Shown here: positions 2,527 to 3,724 of the stretch, in pieces
How positions within the stretch are numbered: position 1 is the first letter of the stretch
How the letters are laid out: each line of letters opens with the position of its first letter
Source: an uncultured Bacilli bacterium
Lineage (GTDB): Bacteria; Bacillota_I; Bacilli_A; RFN20; CAG-826
DNA length: 64,000 bases
Assembly: GCA_944350425.1 (NCBI GenBank)
Contig: CALVOX010000001.1
Location: forward strand, 41,155-105,154
Reading direction: 5' to 3'
Position numbers and translations under genes: made by a program
Notes under the pieces: model-generated
Databases searched by the model: none
The model's input: the letters and a program-made list of their open reading frames with translations, nothing else
Told to the model about the DNA's origin: nothing

Positions 2527-3002
2527 ATGATAACTTTAAAAGAAGGAAATATTTTTGAATCTAAATGCAAAACGCTTGTCAATCCAATAAACTGTGTTGG
2601 AGTAATGGGTAAAGGTTTAAGTTTAGTTTTTAAGGAAAATATCCCCGAATGTTTATTAATTATCAAAAGTTTTGTTCTAAAAACTTAATAAAGATTGGAA
2701 TTTTATATCCTTATTCAATTAATAATGAAGTAAGAGTAATAAATTTTCCAGCCAAAAAACACTGGCGACATAAATCTAAACTAGAATATATCGATAAAGG
2801 ATTAAAATACTTTATCGATAATTATAAAAGATTAAATATTACCTCAATTGCTTTTCCGCCTTTAGGTTGTGGAAGTGGTGGATTAGATTTTAACCTTGTT
2901 TATGATTTAATGAAATCTTATTTAAATGATTTAGAGATTGAAATTGAGATATATAAGCCTTTAGAGGAAACAAGTTTGTTTGATTTATTCTTTTGCAACT
3001 AG
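2527..3002 (+). pseudogene. Macro domain (DarG-like ADP-ribose hydrolase) gene interrupted by a +/-1 frameshift
   Basis: The N-terminal part (MITLKEGNIFESKCKTLVNPINCVGVMGKGLSLVFKE…) runs from 2527 to a stop near 2700. The C-terminal part continues in another frame from about 2634 (GKYPRMF…VINFPAKKHWRHKSKLEYIDKGL…SIAFPPLGCGSGGLDF…). Joined, they give a contiguous macrodomain. The break falls at ggaaaatatcccc (aaaa/cccc runs, 2634-2646). Confidence 0.6.
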
Positions 3003-3353
3003 TTCAACTTCATCACTTGTTAAAGCATCTTTTAGATTTATTCCATCTAGATATACTTTATCAAGCATTGAATAAATATCGTTATAAATCCCAATTAAAG
3101 TATAACCAGCATAAGCAAACTCGCTTCCATCTTCACCAAGTTTCCAAAATTCAAAAGATCTTTTGTTAAATTCCTCGTTAAGTATCTTCGAAAATTTCAT
3201 TCTAGTTTTTCCATCTTCCATTGGAAAACGAGTTAAAAGATAAGATTTATTTTTGAAATTAAATTCAAGAGCCCGACTAACTTCGAATTCTTTATTTACA
3301 GGATTGTTATATTCTTTAATAAAATCTTCAATTGTATTATATTTTTCCTTCAT
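2985..3353 (-). CDS. Hypothetical protein (122 aa), last gene of the XRE/ImmA operon
   Basis: ORF with a 4-nt overlap (ATGA) onto the upstream gene. No family recognised. Its 3' end overlaps the convergent macrodomain gene by 18 nt. Confidence 0.45.
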   Translation of the reverse strand: MKEKYNTIEDFIKEYNNPVNKEFEVSRALEFNFKNKSYLLTRFPMEDGKTRMKFSKILNEEFNKRSFEFWKLGEDGSEFAYAGYTLIGIYNDIYSMLDKVYLDGINLKDALTSDEVELVAKE

Positions 3354-3724
3354 TTTAGGTTAAACTTCCTTTTAATTTCTTTTATTAAATTTTTATCTTC
3401 AGTTGTAGCTGGATAAGCTGTTGTATGATCGAGATAAAGATGATAATGTAAATCCATTCCACTATGCCTCACACCTAAATCTATAGATTTGGCTTGGTTA
3501 TGATTTTTATCATAAAAAGTCAAGTGCTTTAGCTTTCCGTTTTGAACAACAGCGTATATTTTATTTGGACTGTGAGAATATTCGGGTGCTTTGACAGATA
3601 AATGATCTTTTCTTGCAATAATGTCAATTCCGTTGTATTCGCCTATTTTAAAATAAGTTTTTCCATTAGAATTAAAAGTAAAGTCATTAAGAGAAACATT
3701 TCTAAAGCTCCCACGGCCACCCAT
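3350..3724 (-). CDS. Hypothetical protein (124 aa, starts MGGRGSF)
   Basis: The ORF begins 2 nt after the stop of the ImmA-fusion gene. A GGAGGA RBS sits in the last codons of the upstream gene (…gaaggaggacaataaatATG). His-rich C-terminus (HSGMDLHYHLYLDH). No family recognised. Confidence 0.5.
   Translation of the reverse strand: MGGRGSFRNVSLNDFTFNSNGKTYFKIGEYNGIDIIARKDHLSVKAPEYSHSPNKIYAVVQNGKLKHLTFYDKNHNQAKSIDLGVRHSGMDLHYHLYLDHTTAYPATTEDKNLIKEIKRKFNLK

Follow-up and report, generated by a model that had tools for sequence, protein, structure and literature searches.

The window, that is, the whole 64,000-nucleotide stretch of contig CALVOX010000001.1 from an uncultured Bacilli bacterium that was analyzed here, contains a cassette in which all genes lie on the minus strand. 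The cassette starts with a repressor gene and ends with two small genes, designated A and B, and its features are the following, given from the putative promoter downstream.

5263-5290, minus strand: putative operon promoter, a promoter-like TTGCAA-16-TATAAT with GGAGGTG and the XRE start codon downstream of it.
4934-5242, minus strand: XRE-family HTH repressor gene, the first gene of the cassette (102 aa; Pfam HTH_3, E 4.5e-12).
3727-4950, minus strand: 407-aa ORF in which an ImmA/IrrE-type M78 metalloprotease (HELKH) is fused to DUF4417.
About 4651-4845, minus strand: M78 domain (Pfam Peptidase_M78, E 1.4e-6).
About 3820-4341, minus strand: DUF4417 domain (Pfam, E 8e-39).
3733-3740, minus strand: Shine-Dalgarno sequence AAGGAGGA of gene A, 8 nt before the ATG.
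3350-3724, minus strand: gene A (124 aa, starting MGGRGSF; basic, pI 9.6; PHROG 9479), a predicted Ntox24-like toxin.
2985-3353, minus strand: gene B (122 aa; acidic, pI 4.9), the predicted cognate antitoxin or immunity protein of A.

Gene A starts 2 nt past the stop codon of the M78-DUF4417 gene, and its ribosome-binding sequence is embedded in the final codons (E-G-G) of that gene; AAGGAGG-type sites were found ahead of A in most loci. The A stop codon TGA (3352-3350) and the B start codon ATG (3353-3351) share an ATGA, which gives an overlap of 4 nt. The original prediction had described two small ORFs with this overlap, downstream of an XRE/ImmA pair and with a ribosome site embedded in the upstream stop region, and it was accurate on each of these points; the DUF4417 domain of the 407-aa protein had been missed. 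The true start of the M78-DUF4417 gene is likely the ATG at 4932 (MDYEIID..., with the Shine-Dalgarno sequence GGAG), 1 nt after the XRE stop codon. In the other loci examined, M78 and DUF4417 were encoded by separate genes, and the ImmA-DUF4417 fusion appears to be peculiar to this window. The site at 5263-5290 received the top score (10/12) in a promoter scan and was correctly placed; because the scan as a whole showed no enrichment over shuffles, the putative promoter is an argument from placement, and a search for an operator palindrome at this site found none.

The cassette lies in the window between housekeeping genes; a CBS-domain gene and an ECF riboflavin S-component border it at one end, and a macrodomain gene and glycogen phosphorylase border it at the other. 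The convergent macrodomain neighbor was DarG-like (PADLOC, 2e-37). A DarTG-like link to this neighbor was considered and rejected, since no DarT (DUF4433) was found and the adjacency was confined to this lineage. A second cassette, such as that of a related metagenome-assembled genome (MAG), was not present in the window.

A word-indexed search revealed 32 close homologues of A, and a profile search of 1.84 billion representatives revealed 397 clusters at 50% identity. A matched PHROG 9479 (function not assigned) over its full length with an E-value of 1e-9; the window protein had no match in Pfam even at E ≤ 1, none in NCBIfam and nothing meaningful in PADLOC. Among 106 representatives of the A family, all of which the A profile had found at E ≤ 9e-9, 21 matched the Pfam family Ntox24 ("Bacterial toxin 24", PF15529) at E ≤ 0.05, the best with an E-value of 4.6e-9, and any other Pfam family was matched by at most 2 of the 106. 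In particular, the distant family member P0198 matched Ntox24 with an E-value of 0.003 over 69 of the 91 model positions, the His motif being covered, at a score of 18.2 bits as compared with the Pfam gathering score of 24 bits. The window protein is best described as a putative stand-alone, very divergent Ntox24-like protein, the link being transitive via these family members. The remote-homology search thus led to Ntox24 through the family, and the earlier statement that neither small protein matches a family had to be given up for A, which falls within PHROG 9479 and a divergent Ntox24 branch; B is a member of a conserved family that has no entry in Pfam.

Zhang et al. (2012, PMC3482391) described Ntox24 as an all-β domain with a conserved Y, H and H, which forms the C-terminal end of polymorphic toxins of the T2SS, T5SS, T7SS and phage MuF types, and tentatively predicted it to be a metal-independent endoRNase. 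Its partners were Imm50 or Imm53, and it was also predicted in novel type II toxin-antitoxin (TA) systems with an uncharacterized antitoxin (PMC3482391). The AF2 model of A consisted of nine strands and one C-terminal helix and was nearly all-β (pLDDT 85.5). Across 28 diverse members of the A family, Y57 and H93 were invariant and H87, H95 and D82 were at least 90% conserved, a pattern of conservation that fits the published description; A therefore shares with Ntox24 an all-β fold with the conserved Y, H and H. The His-rich stretch HSGMDLHYHLYLDH corresponds to residues 87-100 of A.

Almost all of the best 150 of the 397 clusters were single-domain proteins of 110-145 aa, and among the A-family matches listed, the fusion partners were ParB_N and DUF4417 only; ParB_N was fused directly to A in the metagenomic proteins P0279 and P0295. 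A further protein, P0293, was inspected as a possible A-B fusion, which was not established, as its weak N-terminal B-like stretch gave an hhalign probability of 6%. The N-terminal trafficking or secretion domain that precedes the toxin in polymorphic toxins was not found in A; the window protein contained no signal peptide, trafficking domain, LXG/WXG, RHS or MuF part. The cassette-type subfamily of A was marked by an invariant KAPEYSH motif and an invariant N-terminus, MG[SG]RG[AS]F. The codons of this N-terminus varied synonymously (GGA/GGT/GGC/GGG, AGA/CGN, AGY/TCN), and since this variation is free, the target of selection is the peptide rather than an RNA signal; a nucleotide-level signal at the MGGRG start was rejected on this ground. 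The median pI of A was 9.05.

A single-sequence search with B found only a near-identical copy. The genes in the same slot after A on other contigs were recognizably homologous to B, and more than 135 profile homologues were collected, none of the Pfam, NCBIfam and PADLOC searches with B revealing a domain. The predicted structure of B was α+β, and no HTH or RHH was found in it, so that the DNA binding and autoregulation of type II antitoxins were not seen in B; it is the separate XRE gene that provides the HTH function. B had a pI below 6 in 61 of 61 cases, with a median pI of 4.53 and a median net charge of -10.5, and the two members of the A-B pair were of opposite charge in 61/61. Additionally, B diverged fastest, the mean pairwise identity being 0.36 for B, 0.48 for DUF4417 and 0.54 for A. 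In all six tandem arrays, B copies equaled or exceeded A copies (3A/4B, 2A/3B, 1A/3B and three times 1A/2B), and some of the extra B genes belonged to another subtype; the third B of locus L041 resembled the cognate B of L049, and vice versa. Cassette arrays with extra or orphan immunity genes, as known from polymorphic toxins, were thus present at six loci, heterologous B types included. Solitary (orphan) B genes also occurred away from any A, and Mycoplasmopsis opalescens (genetic code 4) encoded two A paralogues followed by one fused double-B protein. In this comparative behavior, B resembles a neutralizer. Two candidates were rejected during this survey, namely a 366-aa protein upstream of an orphan B (L010), which was taken for a DUF4417-A fusion and is a membrane protein, and the gene upstream of XRE in L002, which was taken for a hidden B homologue.

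To describe the gene order, 80 genome loci were retrieved with the A profile, every ORF was scored by purpose-built HMMs for XRE, M78, DUF4417, A and B, and synteny was counted over the 71 non-redundant genome loci with a full-length A. B lay directly downstream of A in 68 of the 71 loci, and two of the remaining three ended at a contig edge; as in type II TA systems, the adjacent small genes are conserved as a pair. The A-B junction was an ATGA overlap at 60 of about 85 junctions in other genomes. With 32 homologues and 397 clusters of A, more than 135 of B, and this frequency of the ATGA, the conservation is far more than chance would give. The proposal of a coupled effector with an immunity protein or antitoxin, and of a His-rich site in A, is partly supported by the comparative evidence. 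The histidines conserved throughout the family are H87, H93 and H95, and an absence of pairing among homologues, which would have spoken against the proposal, was not observed; the pair is, however, not free-standing but forms the tail of a DUF4417-containing cassette. The complete order XRE-M78-DUF4417-A-B was found in 37 of the 71 loci, an XRE gene in the first position in at least 37, and DUF4417-A-B without the regulators in at least 10. DUF4417 stood directly before A in more than 60 loci, often overlapping A, and DUF4417, A and B co-diverged to the same degree (Spearman 0.67-0.76). A-B without DUF4417 was seen at three loci (L019, L044 and L086). L019, from an uncultured Bacilli MAG, is the closest relative of the window (97% DNA identity, with an A protein 98% identical), and there a 1,050-bp deletion takes out XRE, M78 and the N-terminal part of DUF4417, with A and B intact.

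The hosts included Lachnospiraceae, Oscillospiraceae, Erysipelotrichaceae and Bacilli/Mollicutes MAGs, MAGs of Saccharibacteria, Treponema (a spirochaete) and planctomycetes, and one cultured organism, Mycoplasmopsis opalescens ATCC 27921; metagenome contigs showed the same cassette pattern. The five-part, presumably switch-controlled cassette recurs in dozens of gut bacteria, and its core is common to phages. A tblastn search of PLSDB gave no match that would indicate plasmid carriage, and the models of PADLOC 2.0.0 did not detect the cassette.

Full-length homologues of A were found in 19 phage records by tblastn, and the A profile aligned with gp23 of Streptococcus phage A25 at an hhalign probability of 98%. 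The A homologue came directly after a DUF4417 gene in four phages, A25, SA01 and Javan23 of Streptococcus and DO134P1 of Dorea, and this pair was located immediately upstream of terS/terL. B was not detected in phages by one tblastn query and an HMM scan of three of the four phage loci (L015-L017); A25 gp21, a basic protein considered as a hidden B homologue, was rejected. The phage copies of A were very basic, with a charge of +10 to +16. We also examined the possibility that A and B are fragments of phage structural genes, which would have told against the original prediction, and rejected it, as the homologues in phages, which precede terS, are small genes of a non-structural kind. The absence of B from the phage pair fits a harmful activity that is unrestrained in the phage and held in check by the cell.

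DUF4417 has been listed, alongside DNA methyltransferases, as a phage-enriched fusion partner of the ParB-CTPase fold, with its function unassigned (PMC12704722). The Javan23 DUF4417 protein carried an N-terminal ParB_N domain, and the same domain was fused to DNA methyltransferases in related phages. The invariant residues of DUF4417 comprise TPD-x-S, a Trp and S-T-x-G, motifs that are suggestive of an enzyme. A search of PDB sequences yielded no relative of DUF4417; its matches to pentatricopeptide-repeat entries were dismissed as an artefact, each being the sum of many insignificant repeat matches. Judging from these comparisons, DUF4417 and A appear to be the ancient core, and B, in most cases together with the XRE/ImmA switch, is an addition of the bacterial cassettes.

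With regard to the regulators, the XRE protein matched RmrA (3e-10) and, weakly, capH (1e-7) in PADLOC, the M78 part gave weak matches to RmrA (0.023), capP (5e-4) and PDC-M69B, and the M78-DUF4417 protein matched PHROG 8680, 940 and 87. The HExxH motif was kept in all M78 genes aligned. In ImmR/ImmA, DdrO/IrrE and CapH/CapP, a repressor is paired with its own M78 protease, by which it is cleaved when DNA is damaged, and repressor/M78 pairs gate defense operons and mobile elements (bioRxiv 10.1101/2022.04.27.489752). Among the 122 nearest flanking ORFs of the other loci, defense and mobility genes were a minority beside housekeeping genes. They included serine recombinases (5) and Mob_Pre (2), the restriction genes type I HsdR (2-3), HsdS, a type IV enzyme and a type II methylase and endonuclease, and AbiEi, PDC-S01 (2), PDC-S14 and Schlafen/AlbA (2); at L008 and L009, the gene trio directly followed hsdR. 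This defense-gene neighborhood, present in a minority of the flanks, is suggestive. No recurring secretion genes were found in the flanks.

We compared the cassette with known systems. Like Ntox24 modules, it combines an all-β protein carrying a conserved Tyr and histidines with a small partner gene directly downstream, and the family of A occurs in phages and Firmicutes. The window protein nevertheless does not reach the Pfam model, stands alone, and has its own N-terminus, MG[SG]RG[AS]F, and an extra conserved Asp/His; B matches neither Imm50 nor Imm53, and the coupling to DUF4417 and an XRE/ImmA switch is not described for Ntox24 in the literature found. RosmerTA (RmrT/RmrA) and the Xre-COG2856 pairs likewise place an XRE HTH and an M78 Zn-peptidase beside small proteins of no known fold. 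Whereas RmrA is an HTH fused to M78, the two are separate proteins in the window and the peptidase is fused to DUF4417; the cassette has three downstream genes as against one toxin, and the RmrT models of PADLOC 2.0.0 matched neither DUF4417 nor A or B. The pairing of a repressor with a cognate M78 protease, for which cleavage is predicted here by analogy, recalls CapH/CapP, ImmR/ImmA and DdrO/IrrE. CapH and CapP are divergent, whereas the regulators of the cassette are co-directional and come first in the operon, and the cassette peptidase is short (about 180 aa, ImmA-like) and has no GAF domain. The CapH/CapP arrangement of divergent regulators upstream of a known defense system was not found, the downstream genes forming no PADLOC system.

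A basic effector followed by a small, acidic, faster-evolving neutralizer, coupled translation, and orphan or extra immunity copies are also features of colicin E-type nuclease/immunity pairs and classic type II TA systems, which differ in that the cassette shows no homology to them, no secretion apparatus, no DNA-binding domain in B, and a third partner, DUF4417. The phage ParB_N-DUF4417 protein (often annotated as "DNA modification methylase") and PHROG 9479 form the same gene pair, again in this order and with junctions that are tight or overlap, but the phage loci examined were without B, XRE and M78, were located before terS, and encoded a more basic A, neither the MGGRG start nor the KAPEYSH motif being present in the copies of A25 and SA01. 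The combination of an Ntox24 toxin and an uncharacterized antitoxin was foreseen computationally in 2012 (PMC3482391). The literature found contains no description of the association with DUF4417 and with an XRE/ImmA switch, or of a phage DUF4417-A pair ahead of terS, and the literature found that mentions DUF4417 does not deal with the DUF4417-A-B arrangement.

The observed gene structure, conservation, synteny, family relationships, and patterns of charge and copy number lead us to favor, with moderate confidence, the reading that A and B are an Ntox24-like toxin and its acidic antitoxin, probably forming the output end of an XRE-ImmA-DUF4417-A-B cassette of phage ancestry. From these observations we infer the toxicity and target of A, its neutralization, the induction signal and any role in defense. 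A would be a small, basic, mostly β toxin that most likely attacks nucleic acid. B, made by translational coupling through the ATGA, would bind and neutralize A at a stoichiometry of roughly 1:1. The XRE repressor would silence the operon until the ImmA-type protease cleaves it, and by analogy with ImmR/ImmA, DdrO/IrrE and CapH/CapP, the cleavage would be triggered by a stress signal, namely DNA damage or phage infection. Induction or the loss of B would then free A and lead to cell arrest or death, as in abortive infection or addiction. DUF4417, the probable ancestral partner of A, is enzyme-like and may act as an activator, a targeting subunit, a sensor or a co-effector.

The phage loci could also be read as pointing to a phage-derived enzyme that processes or modifies nucleic acid, made up of DUF4417 and A and acting, for example, before packaging or in protection, with B as a regulatory or specificity subunit and the bacterial cassette as a domesticated, inducible copy without any toxin/antitoxin logic. 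The position of the pair immediately upstream of terS/terL in A25, SA01, Javan23 and DO134P1 is in keeping with this, as are the fusions of ParB_N to DUF4417 (Javan23) and to A (P0279, P0295), the same ParB_N on DNA methyltransferases of related phages (PMC12704722), and the invariant residues of DUF4417, which look catalytic. We nevertheless consider such an enzyme unlikely, given the relationship of A to Ntox24 and an acidic, fast-evolving B whose excess and orphan copies are typical of neutralizers and not of enzyme subunits. Moreover, no modification chemistry is inferable for DUF4417, which has no PDB relative by sequence, and A-B persists without DUF4417 in L019, L044 and L086.

These same three loci would be expected if A-B were an autonomous, selfish type II toxin-antitoxin (addiction) pair and XRE-ImmA-DUF4417 an unrelated neighboring module, as the deletion in L019 spares A and B and a few loci such as L044 and L086 have A-B without DUF4417; TA pairs of the Ntox24 type were, in addition, already noted by Zhang et al. 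(PMC3482391). A simple two-gene TA model, however, does not explain why A is almost always beside DUF4417, which directly precedes and often overlaps it in more than 60 loci, accompanies it in phages that have no B, and co-diverges equally with A and B. Because the ImmA-DUF4417 fusion in the window also ties the regulator to the effector part, we regard full autonomy of the pair as quite improbable. Still less credible, and in our view very improbable, is a role in contact-dependent or bacteriocin-like competition, with A as a secreted interbacterial polymorphic toxin and B as its immunity protein. A is a stand-alone 124-aa protein with neither a signal peptide nor a trafficking domain, recurring secretion genes are missing from the flanks, and the operon is presumably under an intracellular XRE/ImmA switch, even though Ntox24 is known above all from the C-terminal end of T5SS, T7SS and MuF toxins (PMC3482391) and the arrays that include heterologous orphan B genes are reminiscent of polyimmunity loci.

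The reading of A-B as a toxin and antitoxin within a DUF4417-containing cassette can be carried further, to a possible though on balance doubtful scenario. The cassette would then be a previously unrecognized, widely distributed anti-phage (abortive-infection) system derived from a captured phage weapon, in which an Ntox24-type nuclease is activated or directed by DUF4417, a new enzyme or sensor, and B represents a new family of acidic inhibitors, and phages, immediately ahead of packaging, would take over the host with a DUF4417-toxin pair that is left unrestrained. A and B are both unlike any solved structure and may therefore be new folds. Experiments could draw on a cultured host, M. opalescens ATCC 27921, and on the well-studied phages A25 and SA01.

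If the preferred reading is true, it would give a testable role to DUF4417, to PHROG 9479 and the stand-alone Ntox24-like proteins (397 clusters), and to the acidic B family (more than 135 members). It would link a polymorphic-toxin domain to an intracellular module gated by a repressor and a protease, and it would place the same toxin, partnered with DUF4417, beside the packaging genes of temperate Streptococcus phages. The cassette would then be a candidate defense or addiction system that is invisible to the PADLOC 2.0.0 models.

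Among the loci compared, the closest relative of the window was L019, from an uncultured Bacilli MAG, which showed 97% DNA identity to the window. Relative to window positions 4231-5281, L019 (about 6990-7500) carried a 1,050-bp deletion: the -10 box was lost together with the XRE gene and the M78 domain, and DUF4417 was left without its N-terminal part. Genes A and B were undamaged. A second, divergent DUF4417-A-B cassette (L074) was located approximately 12 kb away on the MAG contig of L019, and a second cassette of this type was absent from the window. In the window, ImmA (M78) and DUF4417 were joined in a single ORF (3727-4950, minus strand), while elsewhere, in the other loci examined, they were encoded by two genes with a gap of usually 100-250 nt. 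The TTG start listed for this ORF (4950) falls within the XRE gene; GGAG precedes an in-frame ATG at 4932, which is more likely to be the start.

Three further features flank the cassette in the window:

1711-2478, plus strand, 255-aa multi-pass membrane protein, between the glycogen phosphorylase gene and the macrodomain gene
2527-3002, plus strand, DarG-like stand-alone macrodomain gene (PADLOC DarG, 2e-37; NCBIfam antitoxin_DarG, 6e-33)
5306-5330, 9-bp inverted repeat (TGAAAGTAA / TTTCTTTCA), across the stop codon that ends the CBS-domain gene

The macrodomain gene and gene B are convergent, with an 18-nt overlap at the 3' end of gene B; no DarT was found near the macrodomain gene. The macrodomain gene is broken by a 1-nt frameshift near 2638-2640, and its counterpart in L019 is unbroken and encodes 158 aa; the window copy is either a pseudogene or the product of a sequencing error. 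No Pfam family was found for the membrane protein. As read on the minus strand, a T-rich run follows the inverted repeat, which may act as a weak terminator shielding the promoter of the cassette.

Two Streptococcus phage DUF4417 proteins carry the annotation 'DNA modification methylase':

L099, 3501-4580, Javan23_0032
L016, 4354-5031, SA01_30

Pfam revealed ParB_N and DUF4417 in Javan23_0032 and no methyltransferase domain, and SA01_30 matched the DUF4417 HMM built in this analysis. The name looks like an annotation inherited from ParB-methylase fusions.

In L008/L009 (1-6372) and L024, hsdR of a type I restriction-modification operon is followed directly, in the same orientation, by DUF4417-A-B without XRE/M78. 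An intact cassette, under genetic code 4, was found in Mycoplasmopsis opalescens ATCC 27921 (L093, 6398-9561), which is a cultured organism. This cassette contains two A paralogues, the second of which lacks part of the His motif, and downstream of them a 247-aa protein composed of two B domains.

P0293 (L101, 5001-5999) is a 332-aa stand-alone protein in which 100 N-terminal residues of no recognised family precede the A domain, and its C-terminal region showed only weak B-like similarity. Its gene is surrounded by genes of sugar metabolism, and DUF4417 is absent from the neighbourhood. In the chimeric metagenome proteins P0027-P0030, the N-terminus of an IS200/IS605-type Y1 transposase (PF01797) stands in place of A's first ~10 residues, and the His motif is also gone in some of them; these chimeras probably arose when an IS element inserted into gene A in a single lineage.
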